Source: a phage
Sequence record: PZ019084.1
Direction: 5' to 3' (one strand)
DNA length: 64,000 bases
Shown here: positions 1,801 through 26,724 of the stretch, one piece after another
How the letters are laid out: each line of letters opens with the position of its first letter
How positions within the stretch are numbered: position 1 is the first letter of the stretch
Program-made: the position numbers and the translations under genes
The notes under the pieces: model-generated
Told to the model about the DNA's origin: nothing
The model's input: the letters and a program-made list of their open reading frames with translations, nothing else
Database searches by the model: none

Positions 1801-2517
1801 ATGAATTATAAACTAATTTATGAAAAGTTAATCTCTAATGCTAAATCTCGAAAACTTGATTGCTATACTGAATCTCATCACATTATACCACGCTGTTTAA
1901 ATGGTAGCGATGACGCTTCAAACTTAGTAGATTTAACACCAGAAGAGCACTATGTAGCTCATCAACTTTTAGTAAAAATTTATCCTTCTGAACCAAAATT
2001 AGTCTATGCTGCTAACATGATGACAGTTTCTACGAAATACGCTAAACGTAACAATAAAACTTTCGGCTGGATTCGTCGTAAACTCTGGGAAATAGAAAAG
2101 AATAAAGAGTTCTCCCAAGAGACACGAAAGAAAATGTCCGACGCAGTAGCTAATAAAGCAAGACTAACTTGTCCACATTGCGGTAAGTCTGGATTAAGCG
2201 GGAATATGAATCGATGGCATTTTGATAACTGCCCAAATCACCCCAATCCTAAAGTTAGACCGCCAATGTCTAAAGAACACAGAAATAATATCTCAAACGG
2301 GCTTAAAGCAATCGTTCTTGAAGAAACATCATGCGAATTCTGCGGAATGATAGGCAAGAAATGCGTTATCGCAGCGCATAGAAATTTCTGCAAGAAAAAT
2401 CCAAATGGACGCAAGAAAACTGAAAAGACTGGTACTTGCGTCCATTGTGGTAAAGTTACCACGTTCGGAAATTTATCAAGATGGCATAATGATAATTGTA
2501 AATATAAACCTAGCTAA
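1801..2517 (+). mobile_element. Free-standing HNH homing endonuclease gene with C-terminal Cys/His zinc-finger repeats
   Basis: 238 aa; HNH motif ESHHIIPRCLNGSDDASNLVDLTPEEH; repeats CPHCGKSG...RWHFDNC and CVHCGKVT...RWHNDNC; only plus-strand gene in a minus-strand block; TATAAATA at 1760-1767. Confidence 0.8.
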
Positions 2518-4198
2518 TCTTAGCTAAACTAAATCTACCAACTTTTTCCATTTGAATGTGCTGACCATATTCCTGTGGGTCATGGTCTTTATGCGAAATT
2601 ATGAAGAAGTTGGTATCCTTCAAACCATCTAAAATTTTAGCCACATTTTTAATACCTTCAGCATCAAATGCACCGTCATACACTTCATCAAGAAATAAAC
2701 AACTTATTTTAACACCTGAAACTTTTTCAGCAATATCACGCCAAGTAAATAAAAGAGCAATATCAATTCGTGCTTTTTCACCTTGACTAAATGAAGCATA
2801 ACTAAAATCTTCACGACCACGGGATTTAATTGTCTCATTAAATTCTTCATCTAATGTAAACACATAATCCGCTTCCATTATTTTAAGATAATGATTAATC
2901 TGCTTATTAAATAATGGAATGTACTTTTTAATAATAGCACCTTTAATACCAGAATCTTTGAGCATATCAGTCAAAATTCCTCTATGGTATTTTTCCATTA
3001 CTAAATTAGTTTTTGTCTTAACAATTTTATCAAGTTCTTCTTGAAGCAGTGCTATTTCATCAGCATGGTCAATAAACTCAGATGATGCTTTTTCTATAGC
3101 TGCTTTAACTTTTTTAGCTTTATCTACAGTCGTGATTAGAGATTGCTTTTTATTGCGAATATCATTCGCCAACGTCTGCTGGGTTTTAATATTATCTCGG
3201 TATTCATCAACGAGAACTTTTAAATTATCACGATGTGTTGAAAGCTGTTCAAACGAATGCGTGCATTCAGAAACTTTATCTTTAATTTTAGAAACAACTT
3301 TATCACCGGAACTTAATTGTGACAAACAGGTTGGACATAATCCACCTTCGTGATACATATTAATGACTTTATTATACGAGTCAATTTTTGATTTAATTAA
3401 AAATGCTTCTTGACCGATTTTATTAAATGCATCAGTCGGGTCTTCATCCAAAACAATATTAACTAATCTTTCATTAGCTTCTTCTATTTCCGATTTTAGC
3501 GTTCTAGCTTCTTTTGCCAAATCATCATACATATTCTGCAGACGAGTAAGGTTATCACCGGTTAATTTTTTCTGACGTTCAACGTTATCATTATATATTT
3601 TAATTTGTTGGATAATACTATCTTTTTTAACATCAAGCACTTGGTTTTGTGAATTTAATTCACGTATTAGTGCTTTATTAAGCTTATCCATTTCAGCTAA
3701 TGTTCCTACCTCGAGTAGGTCTTCGACAAGCTTTCTTCTTGCAGGAGTGGATAAGCCCATAAAAGGGGTATATCCAGCCGTGCCGAGTACGACGATCTGT
3801 TTGAAACTGGCGTATGACATTCCGATAAGCTGTTCAAATTCTGCTTGGAAATCTTTACTGCTGGCAGATTCATTAAGACGTGTACCGTTAACGGTGATTT
3901 CGAAAACGTTTGGTTTTTGTCCTCTTTTGATATAGTACTTTTTCTCATCATATTCCATCCACAGTTCAACTAAAAGTTCTTTCTTATTTGTACTGTTTAT
4001 TAATTGGCCTTTCTTTACATCACGAAATGGCTTGCCAAAAAGCCCAAATGTGATGGCTTCTAACATAGTAGACTTACCACCGCCATTTCGCCCAGTAATA
4101 AGAGTTTTTTGAACCTTATCTAGTTGAATGTCAATAGGATTTCCACCTACTGACATTATATTTTGATACCTAACTCGGTTTAGTTTAAAATTCTTCAC
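2510..4198 (-). CDS. 46: Recombination endonuclease subunit gp46 (Rad50/SbcC-like ATPase)
   Basis: 562 aa; Walker A GRNGGGKST near N-terminus, long coiled-coil middle, Cys motif CPTC, C-terminal Walker B region LFLDEV; size matches T4 gp46. Confidence 0.9.
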   Translation of the reverse strand: MKNFKLNRVRYQNIMSVGGNPIDIQLDKVQKTLITGRNGGGKSTMLEAITFGLFGKPFRDVKKGQLINSTNKKELLVELWMEYDEKKYYIKRGQKPNVFEITVNGTRLNESASSKDFQAEFEQLIGMSYASFKQIVVLGTAGYTPFMGLSTPARRKLVEDLLEVGTLAEMDKLNKALIRELNSQNQVLDVKKDSIIQQIKIYNDNVERQKKLTGDNLTRLQNMYDDLAKEARTLKSEIEEANERLVNIVLDEDPTDAFNKIGQEAFLIKSKIDSYNKVINMYHEGGLCPTCLSQLSSGDKVVSKIKDKVSECTHSFEQLSTHRDNLKVLVDEYRDNIKTQQTLANDIRNKKQSLITTVDKAKKVKAAIEKASSEFIDHADEIALLQEELDKIVKTKTNLVMEKYHRGILTDMLKDSGIKGAIIKKYIPLFNKQINHYLKIMEADYVFTLDEEFNETIKSRGREDFSYASFSQGEKARIDIALLFTWRDIAEKVSGVKISCLFLDEVYDGAFDAEGIKNVAKILDGLKDTNFFIISHKDHDPQEYGQHIQMEKVGRFSLAKIS

Positions 4199-4645: not shown

Positions 4646-5661
4646 TGTGTTGCCTCTACATATAACTGATTTGCATATTGAATAAGTGCTTCGCGGTCAG
4701 AATCAGTGATGTCTGGAATTGTATTAATGTATTCTTCCATCAACGTCTGAAGAGATTGAACTTCAACTTCTTCACTATCATCTGACTCGATAGAGTTATC
4801 AATCTTTGACACAACTCGTAATGAATGCACAACTTTTTCTAGTTCAGATTCGAACTTCGTTAGATTTTTGTCTACCTCAGTTACTATAACACGTACTGAT
4901 AGATTTGTAAAATCTTTATAGTCAATTTTTCCCTTAAATGGATACTGAATTCGACGGTGCCAAGTAGTGTTGTTTGGAATAAATTCCATTCGTTCTGTTT
5001 CTGTATCAAACATCCAGAACCCGCGAGGGTCATTCTCGTCACCTGCAGTTAGTGTCCATGGTGTCCCAATATATCTGACGTTAGCAGCCTCAGAGATAGT
5101 ATGGAAGTGACCAGACCACACCTCTTTATAAGTCTTAAGGAAATCAGGTTCAAGACCGTGAGATTTCATTCCTTTATAAAAATAAAATCCATTCAGTTCC
5201 CAGTGACCAACACAAAAAGAAGCAGATGAAGTTTTGATGTGTTCAAGAATTTCACCAGTATTTTCTTCGCACATCCAAGGAATTAAATCAATCAAACATC
5301 CGTCAAAATCTACTGTAGTAGGCTTATCATATACTTTAACATTAGGATATTTAGCCAAAAGCTCAGTAGAAGCATTTGGAGTTAAAGTATTTTTAAAGTG
5401 CATATCATGGTTTCCTACAACAGTATGTAGGGTAATACCAGCATCATCAAGCATTTGAACTATTTCACGAGCGAACTCCATAGTTTTATGCGTGATTGCT
5501 TTTCGCACATCAAAAATATCGCCGTATTGAATCCATGTAGTAATTCCGTTTTTCTTAGAATATTCTATTGCTTGTTTAATTCCATCCAACTGAATGGATT
5601 GAACCCACTCATCATCGGCTTTAACACCTAAATGCCAATCACCTAAATTTAAAATTTTCAT
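4642..5661 (-). CDS. 47: Recombination endonuclease subunit gp47 (Mre11/SbcD-like phosphoesterase)
   Basis: 339 aa; calcineurin-like phosphoesterase motifs (MKILNLGDWHLG, GDIFD, GNHD, GH.H); same size as T4 gp47. Confidence 0.9.
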   Translation of the reverse strand: MKILNLGDWHLGVKADDEWVQSIQLDGIKQAIEYSKKNGITTWIQYGDIFDVRKAITHKTMEFAREIVQMLDDAGITLHTVVGNHDMHFKNTLTPNASTELLAKYPNVKVYDKPTTVDFDGCLIDLIPWMCEENTGEILEHIKTSSASFCVGHWELNGFYFYKGMKSHGLEPDFLKTYKEVWSGHFHTISEAANVRYIGTPWTLTAGDENDPRGFWMFDTETERMEFIPNNTTWHRRIQYPFKGKIDYKDFTNLSVRVIVTEVDKNLTKFESELEKVVHSLRVVSKIDNSIESDDSEEVEVQSLQTLMEEYINTIPDITDSDREALIQYANQLYVEATQ

Positions 5662-21389: not shown

Positions 21390-22358
21390 TTATTTCAGAA
21401 GAGTAACCTCAGCGATTTCTTCCCAACCGTTTTTATCGGTCATAATAAAGTCAGCAAGATAAAGAGCAGTACGCAGTGAAACATTGCGTAAACGATTAAC
21501 ATTAACTTTCATCCATGATAATGCTTTATAAGTTTCTTCATCAGAAAGACCGCGCTTTTGCATCATGTCAGTTGAAAGAATAACATCTTCAACCCTGACC
21601 ATAATTTCTTCATTAGTGTGAACACCCAAATCCAAATAAACCGAGCGGGACACTAATGCTTGTAAATGTGGAGCAAGTTTAGTACCACGGTCTAATTCGC
21701 GGTCAATGTCAACGTTTGTGATAAAAACAATCGTTCCTTTAAATTCAAACTCACGGTCAATGCCTTTTTCTTCTAAGTAAGAAGACGCAGTGCTCCAGCA
21801 GACTTTACGGGTCTCTCCAGTGTCCAGAGCGGCTTTTAGAAGATTAAGAATGTCCATATCAGAGAAAACATCCACATCATCAATCAAAAGGACAGAATTC
21901 TCTTCACGATTATTCCAAAGCTGCTCATAAAGACCAATACCAGAGATTTTACCATTAATACTTTTATATTCAATGTATCCAATATCATTTGCTTTATTTA
22001 AAGCTTTATCTAAAGAATACGTTTTACCAATACCTGCTGCGCCAGAGATAATCAATGAACGAATATTTCCGTTAATAATACCATTCGTCATCATTCCCAT
22101 AACATTAAATCTTTTATTAATGCGGGTTTTCATATCTTCATACGATTCTTTAACTTCCTCAACTTTTACACCATCATATGAAATATCTGATTTGTAAACC
22201 CAAACACCGCGACGTTTACCGTCAATTTCAACAAAAACTTTACCATCTCCTTGTGCATCTACCGGAGCATTATCTGGGAACCATTCGCCTAAGAGCTCAA
22301 AAGTTCCAGAGATTTCTTTACCGAAGTAGATACCCTTATTGATAGTTACAGTTTTCAT
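21390..22358 (-). CDS. P-loop ATPase (AAA-like)
   Basis: Walker A GAAGIGKTY and Walker B-like LLIDDVD; start set at MKTVTINKG (GGAG RBS) just downstream of the early promoter. Confidence 0.6.
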   Translation of the reverse strand: MKTVTINKGIYFGKEISGTFELLGEWFPDNAPVDAQGDGKVFVEIDGKRRGVWVYKSDISYDGVKVEEVKESYEDMKTRINKRFNVMGMMTNGIINGNIRSLIISGAAGIGKTYSLDKALNKANDIGYIEYKSINGKISGIGLYEQLWNNREENSVLLIDDVDVFSDMDILNLLKAALDTGETRKVCWSTASSYLEEKGIDREFEFKGTIVFITNVDIDRELDRGTKLAPHLQALVSRSVYLDLGVHTNEEIMVRVEDVILSTDMMQKRGLSDEETYKALSWMKVNVNRLRNVSLRTALYLADFIMTDKNGWEEIAEVTLLK

Positions 22359-22391
22359 TTTATTCTCCAAATCCGTATCAGTTGATAGTTG

Positions 22392-22422
22392 TATAGTACC
22401 ATAAAGCTTTATGCTTGTAAAC
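22392..22422 (-). promoter_or_regulatory. T4-type early promoter
   Basis: Plus strand tatagtacca...gtaaaccgttttgtgaaaaaa. Confidence 0.6.
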
Positions 22423-22453
22423 CGTTTTGTGAAAAAATTTTGAAATAAAAAAA

Positions 22454-22471
22454 GGGAGCCCGAAGGCTCCC
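22454..22471 (-). terminator. UUCG-loop GC hairpin with U-run (intrinsic terminator)
   Basis: Minus strand gggagccTTCGggctcccTTTTTTT directly after the stop of the 337 aa ORF. Confidence 0.65.
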
Positions 22472-22473
22472 TA

Positions 22474-23487
22474 TCATTTATAATAACTTCGGTGGTTTTC
22501 AAGATAAACCCTCTCAAGGAAGTCATCCCAGAAACCCATGTCTACTTTTTGCTGCATACCGTTCTTAGAAGCTTCAATGGATGCTGCTTCTACTTGATCG
22601 ACCACATCTTCCAAAAACTCTTGAACAGTTTTAAATGGATGTTTACCCAGCTTCACGTCGAGAATAAATGGAGCGTCTTGAAGTGGATAGACTAAGTCAC
22701 CAGTTTTGTAAATTTCCAATAGTTGGAGTCCACCACGACAAGCATGACTCAGAGCTTTCCAGTCAATGCCCTCATTCGCTTCAGCCTTACGAGCACGTTC
22801 GCCATATTCAGCATCTAATTTATTCAGTGACTGTTTAAGCTCGATAAGAGAAAGCGTTGTTTGATATTTACGACCCAACACAGTGTAGAACGTTTGTGGG
22901 CCTGTTTTCTCATGATTATGGAATACCCATTCACAGAATTCGTTCTCTGGAAGACGATGCTTAATATCTTCAACTTTAGTTCGACGAAGTCTATCAGGGA
23001 TTCCTTCTTGATAATCAACCCACTGATCGGGGATTTGATTAACTACTTTCAATACATCACGCAATGCGGCCAAACGAGAACCCTTGACGCCGTATTTAGA
23101 AGCTTGCTTGCGAACATATCCTAAATAGGATTTCATGTTAGTCGTATAAAAACGAGAACGATTGTCTTGAATAAACTTCCATACATCAGGCAAATCAGAT
23201 TTAACTACCAGTTCAGGTGGAGTGTGAAGCATATCCAATGCTACAGTTTCACCATCTGCTGCTAATTTAAAGAAATATTTAAGACTATATAGTTCATGGT
23301 CAATATCATCTTTAGTGTTTTTAGATGATGTATTGTTAGTGTTTTTGCTCATATGCTCTTTAACATTTCCGATAAGAATATCGCGAGCAGGAGGAACAAA
23401 GATTTCTTTAAAATCTACATCAGATTCTGGAGTAGAAGTTCCATAAAGATGACTACCAAAATAGCTTTTCATTACTGTTTTCATCAT
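22474..23487 (-). CDS. Predicted nucleotidyltransferase-fold protein (Pol-beta-like NTase motif)
   Basis: 337 aa; N-terminal FGSHLYGTSTPESDVDF fits the hG[GS]x(9-13)DhD NTase signature; helical C-terminal region. Confidence 0.5.
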   Translation of the reverse strand: MMKTVMKSYFGSHLYGTSTPESDVDFKEIFVPPARDILIGNVKEHMSKNTNNTSSKNTKDDIDHELYSLKYFFKLAADGETVALDMLHTPPELVVKSDLPDVWKFIQDNRSRFYTTNMKSYLGYVRKQASKYGVKGSRLAALRDVLKVVNQIPDQWVDYQEGIPDRLRRTKVEDIKHRLPENEFCEWVFHNHEKTGPQTFYTVLGRKYQTTLSLIELKQSLNKLDAEYGERARKAEANEGIDWKALSHACRGGLQLLEIYKTGDLVYPLQDAPFILDVKLGKHPFKTVQEFLEDVVDQVEAASIEASKNGMQQKVDMGFWDDFLERVYLENHRSYYK

Positions 23488-23945
23488 TCAGCCTTATATT
23501 CAATAACAGGACATACTTTAGCTTTACGCGCTTTTAAAAATTCGACGATAATAGATTTCTTGGGTTGAATAGGAGGTAAACCCTTATACGCCCTATCAAT
23601 ATTTTCTACATGTAAAGCATAATCCTTTTTCCATTTATAATCTTTATATTTTTCATGCAGTTGTGCAGGAATAACAAATGAACCAATAATAAGTAAAACA
23701 AGCAAAATGGCAAGTATAAATGCTGATGGAATAAGAGTCCATAAACTACCAAAAATAAGCCATTTCTGTATGATTTCTGCGCAGATAATAGTTAGACCTG
23801 CGAGCATAGTACATCCGAATAAAGAAACGAAAAATGTAGGGATAACAATAGACCAAAAATACGCGCACAGTGTCTTAGGTCGTTTCCATTCGTCGTTAAA
23901 CATTTTGAATAATTTATAATGCCAAGAGTTTTCATTAATAATCAT
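23484..23945 (-). CDS. Membrane protein
   Basis: 153 aa with at least three hydrophobic spans. Confidence 0.45.
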   Translation of the reverse strand: MIINENSWHYKLFKMFNDEWKRPKTLCAYFWSIVIPTFFVSLFGCTMLAGLTIICAEIIQKWLIFGSLWTLIPSAFILAILLVLLIIGSFVIPAQLHEKYKDYKWKKDYALHVENIDRAYKGLPPIQPKKSIIVEFLKARKAKVCPVIEYKAE

Positions 23946-23947
23946 AA

Positions 23948-24469
23948 TTATCCTTTCATTGAAGGTGTAACAGTTGTTAAATACTTAATCATAGCTTCAG
24001 CTTCTGATTTTGATAATGAAATTTCTCCACTGTTTTGACGAATAGAAATAAAATCCGGATGACGGTCACCACCAGCTTTTAAAACACACATATAAGTATC
24101 AGTTTCATCTTCAATATCTGAAATGATTGAAGCAGTTCCGCATGAATGCGGTTTTTGATAAATCAATGCAGCTTTTCTTCCACCGTTTGACTGTTCATAA
24201 ACTTTTAACACATCAAACAAATCACTTCTTTTATCAATAGCTAAGATGTTGTTTTCATCTTCAATGTTAAATCCTTCGGATACTTCATAAAGTGTCACCC
24301 ATAAATCACCTATATCGATAGTAGCATTTACTTTTCCATGGCTTTCAAGAGCATGACAAATTTTCTTGATTTCGTCATAACTCATTTTAATAATATCATC
24401 TCCTTGAATAAGGAAGATGTCATTTTTAAATTCAACACGAATTAAACCACTTTCACTTGAAATAAACAT
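23948..24469 (-). CDS. Hypothetical protein, paralog of the next gene
   Basis: 173 aa; C-terminal region resembles that of ORF 24476-25033 (SKSEAEAMIKYLTTVTPSM vs TKDEAIALKTYLDSVIPTM). Confidence 0.45.
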   Translation of the reverse strand: MFISSESGLIRVEFKNDIFLIQGDDIIKMSYDEIKKICHALESHGKVNATIDIGDLWVTLYEVSEGFNIEDENNILAIDKRSDLFDVLKVYEQSNGGRKAALIYQKPHSCGTASIISDIEDETDTYMCVLKAGGDRHPDFISIRQNSGEISLSKSEAEAMIKYLTTVTPSMKG

Positions 24470-24475
24470 ATTTCC

Positions 24476-25033
24476 TCACTTTGAAATCATAGTTGGAATG
24501 ACAGAATCAAGATAAGTCTTTAGCGCAATAGCTTCGTCTTTGGTAAATGTGACAATATGTGATCGAAAATCGTCAATTTGGCGAATAGTTAAGACATCTC
24601 CCTCTTCATAACATTTTGATACATTTAAAAGAGTTTCATCATTCTGATTGCAAGCGTTAGTAATAATAGCATTGCAATTTTTGAGCCATTTTAAACTATG
24701 TTTTCTTTCATTAGAATAATAAAAATATTTAATCTTAGCTATAAAACTATCCCAATGGATAACTGATAAACACATTGACTCACTGTTAATATTAAATCCT
24801 GGGCATGAAGAATAAAAATGAATTTTGTGCTCATCATTGATGCTTACTATTTTATCAGTATAAGGATATTCAATTTGGGTTAAATGAATGATTTCACTAG
24901 GCGTAAAATATAGCATATCGTCTTCTTGCGTCAAACGATACATGTTATTTACTTTTTCTATAGCCAATTCACCAAAAAGTGGACTAACTTCTAATACCAA
25001 TCGTTTCATATTGATTCTCTTCGACTCACTCAC
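24476..25033 (-). CDS. Hypothetical protein, paralog of the previous gene
   Basis: 185 aa; shared C-terminal motif with ORF 23948-24469. Confidence 0.45.
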   Translation of the reverse strand: MSESKRINMKRLVLEVSPLFGELAIEKVNNMYRLTQEDDMLYFTPSEIIHLTQIEYPYTDKIVSINDEHKIHFYSSCPGFNINSESMCLSVIHWDSFIAKIKYFYYSNERKHSLKWLKNCNAIITNACNQNDETLLNVSKCYEEGDVLTIRQIDDFRSHIVTFTKDEAIALKTYLDSVIPTMISK

Positions 25034-25167
25034 AATTACATACTCCTTTGAATAGTATCAATAATGTTGTTCACCAGATTATAAGTAAACATTGGATAAT
25101 TATATTGAATCATCACATACACAACAAACAAAACTTTCATTCTCTTCTCCTTGGCAGTTGACAAGAT

Positions 25168-25198
25168 TACTATACCATAACCTTGCCAACTTGTAAAC
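25168..25198 (-). promoter_or_regulatory. T4-type early promoter
   Basis: Plus strand tactatacca...ttgtaaacaa. Confidence 0.5.
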
Positions 25199-25200
25199 AA

Positions 25201-25374
25201 TTAAATGACGTTTTCAATAAAATTCTGAAGCTTTGTGTGAGCATCAACCATGATTTTCATTTCTTCCTTTGCGAAAGCTGTACCTCTTTCTCGAGCAGAA
25301 TACTCATAGTCAGAAACTGCATTAGCATATTCTTCAATTAGCTTCATTAAAAACATCTGCTTTTCAGTTTTCAT
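25201..25374 (-). CDS. Small protein (57 aa), not in ORF track
   Basis: Minus-strand ATG at 25374 preceded by AGGTGG RBS; translates MKTEKQMFLMKLIEEYANAVSDYEYSARERG... to TAA at 25201. Confidence 0.3.
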   Translation of the reverse strand: MKTEKQMFLMKLIEEYANAVSDYEYSARERGTAFAKEEMKIMVDAHTKLQNFIENVI

Positions 25375-25558
25375 TATTCCACCTAATCATTTCAAGATAT
25401 TGAACTAACTTAGCTTTGGATTTATCCAAATCCTTTTTAGCTGCTTCTATACCATCGTACGAATATCCTTCACAGTGCTCAACTGCCAATTGGTATGAAT
25501 CTATTTCAATATCACGTGCTAATTTAATGATTTTTTCAAACTGTTCACGTGTTAGCAT
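25364..25558 (-). CDS. Hypothetical small protein
   Basis: 64 aa ORF. Confidence 0.35.
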   Translation of the reverse strand: MLTREQFEKIIKLARDIEIDSYQLAVEHCEGYSYDGIEAAKKDLDKSKAKLVQYLEMIRWNNEN

Positions 25559-25560
25559 AC

Positions 25561-25800
25561 TTAAACTCTCGTATTATGATCGATAATTTCATCAAGAAAC
25601 ATATCTAAAGCTTCTACAGCATTATCAACTTTAGCTTCAAGTTCTTCAGCACCTTTATTTGCAATGCCTGACGAAAACCAAGCAAAGTCACTAAGTTCCT
25701 CATCTGCTTTGCGAATTAAAGCTACCAATTCTTTAATTTTATCTGCTTGTTCAATGCTAATCATTATTCCACCACATATGAAAGAGAGAATATTGCACAC
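25561..25800 (-). CDS. Hypothetical small acidic protein
   Basis: 79 aa ORF. Confidence 0.35.
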
Positions 25801-25952
25801 GCCATGTGAGTTGCAGCTTCATCACACATATCATAACGTTTCTTAAGAAGTTCTACAAGTTCTTCACTAGTAACGTCATCCATGTTGACGAAAAAATCAC
25901 CATTAATGATGACGTAGATATTTCCTTCTTGATTAAGTGCTTCAATTTTCAT
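25764..25952 (-). CDS. Hypothetical small protein
   Basis: Start set at [10 protein letters not shown] with GAGGAG RBS; longer ORF start lies inside the promoter. Confidence 0.35.
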
Positions 25953-25979
25953 GATGTTCTCCTCTTTATCCGATGGTTG

Positions 25980-26010
25980 TATAGTATCACAGCTCAAATG
26001 GAAAGTAAAC
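25980..26010 (-). promoter_or_regulatory. T4-type early promoter
   Basis: Plus strand tatagtatcac...gaaagtaaac. Confidence 0.55.
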
Positions 26011-26025
26011 CGGTAAAATGAAAAA

Positions 26026-26043
26026 AGTCTCCCGAAGGAGACT
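26026..26043 (-). terminator. UUCG-loop GC hairpin with U-run (intrinsic terminator)
   Basis: Minus strand agtctccTTCGggagacTTTTTT. Confidence 0.65.
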
Positions 26044-26047
26044 ATTG

Positions 26048-26434
26048 TTATTCGAGGGAAAGAAGATACTTACTCTGGTAAAACATTCCAGTAATATCAT
26101 CTATCGTGCTTTGAATGGCTGGAGGCATTTCTTTATAAATGCTGTTAGATTGGTCTAGTATGCGATCAATCATTTTAACTGTATCAGTAGGAAGTTTACT
26201 AGCATCTGGAATTGAAGGTGTGTATTTTCTACCAGAATACCCCAAATATTGCTCACCAAATTTATCAATCAAATCTGGCAACTCAGAGAAAATAAAATCG
26301 TATGCTTTGTGTCTAGCATAACTTTTAGTTTCAAAATGCGCAGAATGAAAATAAGCTTGTGCAGCCATTAATAAACCTAAGTATTCATCTGCCTTTGAAG
26401 GTTTTCCGCTTTGTGAAAAGTCGCTGAATTTCAT
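26048..26434 (-). CDS. Hypothetical protein (position of T4 rI.1)
   Basis: 128 aa ORF immediately downstream of rI. Confidence 0.45.
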
Positions 26435-26724
26435 TCAGTCTCCAATTTAATGTTCATAATTCTAGCGTATGATTGTGCCATCTCCGCGCCTCGTTCTATG
26501 CATTCAAAATCAGAAGAGCACGGGTCATTTTTATAGGTCGTTCGCATGAAACTATAGAACTGTTTAGATGATTCTACGCTTTTATTTTCAAAAAGCGTAT
26601 AAACATGTCTAATACCAGATTCCATAAATTTATCAAAATGAGGATCAACATTCGCTTCAATCGGCGGAGATAAAACAAATGCTAATCCTAGCATGGCGAA
26701 TAATGCCGCTGCTTTTAAGGCCAT
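26431..26724 (-). CDS. rI: Lysis inhibition regulator RI (signal-anchored periplasmic protein)
   Basis: 97 aa; MALKAAALFAMLGLAFVLSPPIEANVDPHFDKFMESG... matches remembered T4 RI. Confidence 0.9.
   Translation of the reverse strand: MALKAAALFAMLGLAFVLSPPIEANVDPHFDKFMESGIRHVYTLFENKSVESSKQFYSFMRTTYKNDPCSSDFECIERGAEMAQSYARIMNIKLETE

Follow-up and report, generated by a model that had tools for sequence, protein, structure and literature searches.

In bacteriophage T4, the free-standing HNH homing-endonuclease gene mobD lies between nrdC.11 and mobD.1, and it is catalogued as a cassette that lacks a promoter and whose target is unknown (PMC2988022). The product of the adjacent gene, MobD.1 (UniProt Y05I_BPT4), is named a "y05I-like putative transcription factor." In the full-text literature, we found no functional study under "mobD.1," "y05I," or "nrdC.11," and the name mobD.1 turned up in a single paper, as the marker of an insertion site. 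The related phages RB14, RB32, and RB51 harbor two other genes here, RB32ORF097c and RB32ORF096c, and the GenBank notes of RB14 describe the former as "similar to mobD.1" and the latter as "similar to RB69ORF104c and 44RRORF212c, replaces mobD." Here we describe the corresponding locus in the phage sequence record PZ019084.1, of which a stretch of 64,000 nucleotides (the window) was analyzed. Three genes, designated M, A, and B, stand between nrdC.11 and mobD.2 in this phage, and our comparisons indicate with high confidence that this arrangement, free of mobD, is the one usually found in the nrdC.11-mobD.2 region of T-even phages. The elements on which the comparison turns are as follows.

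24476 to 25033, minus strand: B, y05I-family paralog and ortholog of T4 mobD.1; 185 amino acids (aa) from a GTG start, 177 aa from the ATG at 25009.
23948 to 24469, minus strand: A, y05I-family paralog of 173 aa, identical in kind to RB32ORF097c and not in T4; assigned by Pfam, PHROG, and Smith-Waterman comparison.
23484 to 23945, minus strand: M, predicted membrane protein of 153 aa, corresponding to RB32ORF096c and the RB69ORF104c family (phrog_944), not in T4.
22474 to 23487, minus strand: nrdC.11, RlaP-type nucleotidyltransferase (PF10127, E = 3e-11; phrog_388, E = 2.5e-136), last gene of the putative transcription unit.
23489 to 24450, no strand assigned: 962-bp segment that takes in M entirely and A starting at about codon 7, whose T4 counterpart is the 808-bp mobD cassette (blastn breakpoints and junction alignments).
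24451 to 24475, minus strand: ribosome-binding site, start codon, and first six codons of A, kept in T4 in front of mobD (junction alignment).

The open reading frames (ORFs) at 23484 to 23945, 23948 to 24469, and 24476 to 25033 were all present, and all are on the minus strand. The preliminary description of this stretch had placed the paralogs downstream of the membrane protein gene; given their strand, they precede M in transcription.

The window and T4 are collinear by blastn, at 94 to 95% identity, on both sides of a difference that measures 962 bp in the window and 808 bp in T4, and T4 mobD occupies exactly the position of A and M. At the right junction, T4 retains the mobD.1 stop codon and then the 5' end of A, with its ribosome-binding site (GGAAAT), its ATG, and six codons in all (MFISSG), and at the left junction homology restarts at the start codon of nrdC.11. 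The retained sequence opens an unannotated 23-codon ORF in T4 (minus strand, positions 5209 to 5277 of the T4 locus examined, L002) that reads MFISSGTDMCYKCKAKLNETKNQ before its stop; the first six codons are thus a fossil of A. The TGA of this ORF overlaps the ATG of mobD (ATGA), and the old ribosome-binding site of A could provide translational coupling for mobD. No remnants of mobD flanking M or A were found at the junctions in the window. The fossil of A in front of mobD shows that T4 is the derived state and that, in the T4 lineage, mobD overwrote M and all of A beyond the first six codons. The T4 locus is then the invaded one and the window locus the uninvaded one. The annotation of RB14 implies that M replaces mobD, whereas the junctions described here show that M was replaced by mobD.

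No HNH endonuclease ORF was found between nrdC.11 and mobD.1 when the window was searched with T4 MobD by tblastn, so the absence of mobD noted in the preliminary description holds. The sole match in the window (1858 to 2010, plus strand) falls in an unrelated HNH ORF at 1801 to 2517 on the plus strand. That ORF encodes a Mob-like protein of 238 aa (MNYKLIYEKL...), which is 57% identical to T4 MobD over residues 25 to 75. It is on the strand opposite to its neighbors, abuts a 562-aa ORF (2510 to 4198, minus strand) resembling a gp46-type recombination protein, and is probably itself a free-standing homing endonuclease.

The block is widespread. Its carriers include T2, T6, RB14, and about 430 to 480 Tequatrovirus records. 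Of the phage records, 434 contain A (80% identity or more) and 931 contain M, the latter including Tequatrovirus, Mosigvirus, Gaprivervirus, and Jiaodavirus as well as phages of Enterobacter, Aeromonas, Edwardsiella, and Yersinia, compared with 47 records for T4-type MobD at 95% identity or more. The genes of RB14, RB32, and RB51, and RB69ORF104c, are the same genes (A at 92 to 94% identity, M at about 90%). T6 carries M, A, and B intact; in RB14, B is frameshifted. In T2 (L006, locus 485 to 2026), the DNA of the block is present and all three genes are frameshifted, M by a 2-nt deletion at nt 104 to 105, A by indels at nt 153 and 381 to 382, and B by indels at nt 127 to 128 and 356. In T2 A as in T2 B, the indels add up to 3 nt, which brings back the original frame after about 229 nt that contain stop codons; BFVD lists the T2 fragments as three separate UniProt entries. 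Outside T2 and T4, dN/dS values of A, B, and M were 0.10 to 0.24, indicating purifying selection. T4 tolerates deletion of the region from nrdC.11 to mobD.3 (PMC9825161), and since T2 is frameshifted in all three genes as well, the block genes are dispensable.

Beyond the close relatives, RB69 and DK-13 carry one y05I gene only, with M and then nrdC.11 behind it. In a Klebsiella Jiaodavirus, where the order y05I, M, nrdC.11 is likewise kept, a 74-aa gene consisting of the C-terminal y05I domain only (y05I_C) lies directly upstream of M. The locus of Klebsiella phage 15882-3-2 (positions 2593 to 2998 of L005) encodes a 63-aa DUF7189 protein, then the 74-aa y05I_C-only protein, then the M homolog. 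The 74-aa protein matches DUF7189 weakly (E = 8e-4), as does repeat I of A (see below), and DUF7189 may be another single-repeat relative of the y05I fold.

In the preliminary description, the two ORFs were taken to be paralogs on the strength of a shared C-terminal segment, and the relationship stands on alignment. The Smith-Waterman score of A against B was 92 over residues 2 to 171 and 15 to 182, respectively, against a mean of 31.0, a standard deviation of 5.2, and a maximum of 58 for 2,000 shuffles (Gumbel p of about 2e-7). Both proteins contain PF24449 (T4_y05I_N; 113.4 bits for A and 132.1 bits for B, gathering cutoff 24.9) and PF24448 (T4_y05I_C; 82.5 and 74.9 bits, gathering cutoff 27), and both match phrog_1502. 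A also matched T4 MobD.1 by BLASTP (E = 7e-10, 25% identity over 175 columns). A direct BLASTP comparison of A with B gave no match, which is taken to be a seeding failure and was not counted as a negative, because the Smith-Waterman comparison with shuffles, the T4 ortholog, and the Pfam domains all show homology. By these comparisons, A and B are homologous over their full length and are true paralogs. The similarity is thus not confined to the C terminus, although the motif noticed there is real. The positions common to both are E-A-x-A-x-x-x-Y-L-x-x-V-x-P-x-M, so that the motif as first written, EA.A.K.YL..V.P.M, was nearly right, with the K offset by one column. No other part of the family is as conserved as this motif, which is also found in stand-alone proteins of 69 to 83 aa.

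B is the ortholog of T4 mobD.1 (86% identity, E = 3e-119), and part of the block is therefore in T4. The absence of the block from T4, one of the points raised in the preliminary description, accordingly applies to A and M, which are missing, and not to B, which is kept as mobD.1. A has the same two Pfam domains as T4 MobD.1, but is only 25 to 28% identical to it and has no T4 counterpart of its own. The exhaustive HMMER search of 1.8 billion representative sequences gave 23 hits, none of which extends the y05I family; three were weak, partial, and to much longer proteins, and the others were family-sized proteins or short fragments. As seen by these searches, the y05I family is tiny and restricted to phages, and the genome records carrying y05I genes are all of T4-like phages. 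Scans of M, A, B, NrdC.11, and NrdC.10 with NCBIfam gave nothing meaningful, and PADLOC models gave no hit for any of the five at an E value of 0.1 or less. In a metagenomic protein of 179 aa (P0011), an N-terminal domain 95% identical to that of B is joined in register to a C-terminal domain 72% identical to that of A; unequal recombination between the tandem genes, with a single fused gene as its outcome, would account for such a chimera.

An AlphaFold2 model of A, built on an alignment of 17 sequences, had a mean pLDDT of 85.6 and contained three beta-beta-beta-beta-alpha units. Its closest fold matches were repeats I and II of Drosophila Pur-alpha (score 10.2, 98 residues aligned), SsgB (8.3), MRP2 (8.2), MRP1 (7.1), and Whirly p24 (7.1), followed by PC4/Sub1, Borrelia Pur-alpha, and PUR repeat III (about 5 to 6), and most of the top matches are single-stranded DNA (ssDNA) or RNA binders. 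The topology of the PC4-like/Whirly/PUR proteins, beta4-alpha repeats with two per domain, is found in the predicted model. A trace of the repetition is visible in sequence, as hhalign related repeat I to repeat III with a probability of 75% (E = 2.5e-5), and the stand-alone proteins of 69 to 83 aa correspond to the repeat III domain alone. It is likely, judging from the model, that y05I proteins consist of three beta4-alpha repeats with a PC4-like (Whirly/PUR) fold. Repeats I and II would form an intramolecular PC4-like domain, and repeat III, bearing the conserved helix EAxALxxYLxxVxPxM, would be a half-domain. Such a fold would explain the name "putative transcription factor" in Pfam.

This predicted architecture recalls that of Pur-alpha, which has three PUR repeats, with I and II forming a type I PC4-like domain and III a type II dimerization domain. 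The combination of type I and type II PC4-like domains is stated in a review to be known only for Pur-alpha (PMC7549692), and the y05I family would be a putative second example. The two differ in that Pur-alpha has no detectable sequence similarity to y05I and in that the phage proteins are acidic on balance, not basic, and occur only in phages. By analogy with Pur-alpha, repeat III would pair with a second repeat III to give homodimers or A/B heterodimers, an idea whose chances we put slightly below even. A and B could then act as early, nonessential accessory factors whose ligand is a single-stranded nucleic acid or, since they are acidic, some protein of the host or phage; that they bind nucleic acid specifically seems doubtful.

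M has two long hydrophobic stretches (approximately residues 25 to 60 and 62 to 98; Kyte-Doolittle 19-residue maximum of 3.0), in agreement with its earlier description as a multispan membrane protein. Both termini are basic, which suggests a hairpin topology with both termini in the cytoplasm; the pI is 9.3, and the C-terminal tail is rich in K and R. M matches phrog_944 (profile match, E = 9.9e-50) and had no match in Pfam, NCBIfam, or PADLOC; among the 172 proteins that a profile search for its relatives returned, there was no Pfam domain and no informative name. M is thus a predicted small inner-membrane protein with two hydrophobic spans, from a family much wider than the y05I family. The conserved cytoplasmic positions of the M family include H9, Y10, C27 (in LCAYFW), and C145, P146, and E149 (in KVCPxIEY); this set of His and Cys residues on both cytoplasmic segments might serve in metal binding or lipidation. 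In one distant lineage, M is near RlaP and the 165-aa gene upstream is not a y05I gene. An obligatory module of y05I, M, and the RlaP nucleotidyltransferase was considered and dropped, since distant M homologs occur without y05I or in unrelated contexts.

The preliminary description had suggested that the block may be a lineage-specific replacement, which would mean that a T4-like ancestor containing mobD lost it here and that M and a second paralog were gained. The absence of mobD from the window and the difference of the interval from T4 are what this history would produce. It does not account for the fossil of A (ribosome-binding site, ATG, and MFISSG) that T4 carries in front of mobD, and the block is present in roughly 10 times more records than T4-type mobD. 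Of the phages named for comparison at the outset, T2 and T6 both carry it (intact in T6, frameshifted in T2), the gene order y05I, M, nrdC.11 recurs in other genera, and M and A are under purifying selection. Moreover, free-standing homing endonuclease genes are invading elements (PMC2988022). We therefore consider loss of mobD in the lineage of the window very improbable. The paralogs, the absence of mobD, and the difference from T4 were correctly recognized in the preliminary description, and it is the direction of change that is reversed. An improbable history for the gene pair itself is that A and B are functionally redundant products of a tandem duplication that is recent and confined to this phage group. 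The two genes are neighbors on one strand, similar in size, and share the same domain pair, and the B/A chimera P0011 shows that the two can recombine. Yet the identity of A to B is only 27%, so that A stands no nearer to B than to homologs from other genera, its identity to the other family branches compared being 25 to 32% (56% to a closer A-type relative), while B is 43 to 45% identical to the single copy of RB69, and hundreds of genomes retain both copies under purifying selection. For these reasons, either the split between A and B is old or A was acquired horizontally.

What A and B do is a separate matter, and here an account based on protein binding has to be set beside one based on nucleic acid. 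SsgB, a protein with a Whirly fold, recruits FtsZ and is localized by the small membrane protein SepG (PMC8061694, PMC4852450). By analogy, A and B could be acidic adaptors or inhibitors with a Whirly-like fold that bind proteins or mimic nucleic acid, perhaps together with the basic cytoplasmic tail of M, a role that we regard as possible though unlikely. Consistent with it are the pI values of y05I proteins (4.2 to 5.8) against the pI of 9.3 and K/R-rich tail of M, the position of a y05I or y05I_C gene directly upstream of M in four genera, and the SsgB/SepG precedent itself. Most of the top fold matches are nevertheless ssDNA or RNA binders, T4 has B without M, M homologs occur without y05I in other phages, and adjacency of y05I and M is weak evidence of a functional link because synteny is generally conserved among T4-like phages. 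SsgA-like proteins (SsgB, Protein Data Bank [PDB] entry 3cm1) also differ from y05I proteins in being actinomycete specific, trimeric, and single domain, with no sequence relationship to y05I found, and SsgB works with SepG, whereas the pairing of A and B with M is only putative. Taken as a whole, from the invasion of the T4 locus through to early accessory factors of PC4-like fold, our explanation is one that we hold with moderate confidence, and several observations weigh against parts of it. Most y05I members are acidic (pI 4.2 to 5.8, with a net charge of about -24 in the DK-13 protein), and PC4-like nucleic-acid binders tend to be basic, so that such acidity is unusual. The pTM of the full-length model of A is only 0.56. 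No link to PUR, PC4, or Whirly was found in Pfam at an E value of 1 or less or by profile search against PDB sequences, which gave no relevant match, and a Foldseek search of BFVD returned only family members and uncharacterized phage proteins; the link thus rests on the predicted structure. T4 has B without A or M, which means that B does not require M or heterodimerization with A, and distant M homologs lie in unrelated phage contexts on three contigs. Finally, the promoter and terminator described below are consensus matches only. The acidity of y05I proteins sits poorly with generic nucleic-acid binding, and a protein-binding or mimic role would fit better, as with SsgB. The most specific form of this idea is that y05I is a phage-only counterpart of Pur-alpha (type I domain plus type II half-domain), strongly acidic, present as two old paralogs in most T-even phages that could heterodimerize via repeat III, and acting early as a nucleic-acid mimic or host-factor inhibitor and not as a classical ssDNA or RNA binder; we regard it as a rather long shot.

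Signals consistent with early transcription bracket the block, together with the gene that would be transcribed first.

25169 to 25197, minus strand: T4-early-type promoter-like site (GTTTACA, 17-nt spacer, TG-n-TATAGT), just past the mobD.2a stop codon; consensus match, 10 of 12 positions, with the TG of an extended -10 element.
25036 to 25140, minus strand: mobD.2 ortholog, 34 aa, first gene of the putative unit; position matches T4 mobD.2.
22453 to 22472, minus strand: intrinsic-terminator-like hairpin (8 pairs, 6 of them GC, followed by a T-run), two bases past the nrdC.11 stop codon; consensus match.

The promoter-like site at 25197 to 25169 is the likely start of a transcript comprising mobD.2, B, A, M, and nrdC.11, which on these consensus matches looks like one early transcription unit. 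The intergenic gaps are 2 to 6 nt, and the stop codon of M overlaps the start codon of nrdC.11 (ATGA). A second terminator-like hairpin lies at 26043 to 26026; the record of phage JB75 annotates both corresponding terminators and places its predicted promoter nearer the start of B. Scans for late promoters (TATAAATA) and for MotA-box middle promoters found none inside the block, and an Rfam scan of 22000 to 26500 gave two subthreshold matches only, probably by chance.

The surrounding region is that of a T4-like genome (Tequatrovirus): positions 22400 to 26500 have matches in 725 phage records, with about 97% identity for the best of them. Compared with annotated relatives, the gene order on the minus strand is tk, rI.1, rI, rI.-1, mobD.5, mobD.4, mobD.3, mobD.2a, mobD.2, B, A, M, nrdC.11, and nrdC.10. 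A second array of paralogs lies directly upstream of the B/A/M block, formed by the tandem genes mobD.2a (25201 to 25374), mobD.3 (25364 to 25558), and mobD.4 (25561 to 25800), all on the minus strand and all matching Pfam DUF7438 (E = 1e-15 to 1e-17). In RB14 and T6, about 430 bp of additional sequence, missing from the window, lies between mobD.2 and mobD.1 and holds a fourth DUF7438 copy and a Phage_tudor gene. On the other side of the block, the 378-aa ORF called mechanically for nrdC.10 (21390 to 22526, minus strand) spans the terminator-like hairpin at 22453 to 22472. The start annotated in relatives corresponds to an internal ATG at 22358, giving a protein of 322 aa (MKTVTINKG...); NrdC.10 matches AAA and STAND NTPase families weakly.

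The block is an ordinary, widespread accessory cluster, and the comparative observation, already present in the RB14, RB32, and RB51 records, is not new; as a genomic observation, it changes little beyond recording the T4 mobD site in its uninvaded state. What mobD displaced can be read from the precise junctions and from the six codons of A that survive in T4, and the cleavage target of MobD is to be sought in mobD-free phages such as the one described here, at the nrdC.11 5' end or the mobD.1 3' end. Only the reading of the MobD.1 family as three-repeat, PC4-like proteins is mildly new, and it is still a prediction. It provides a widespread early protein family of T-even phages with a hypothesis that can be tested at the bench, namely that its members are three-repeat PC4-like proteins, acidic and possibly dimeric.

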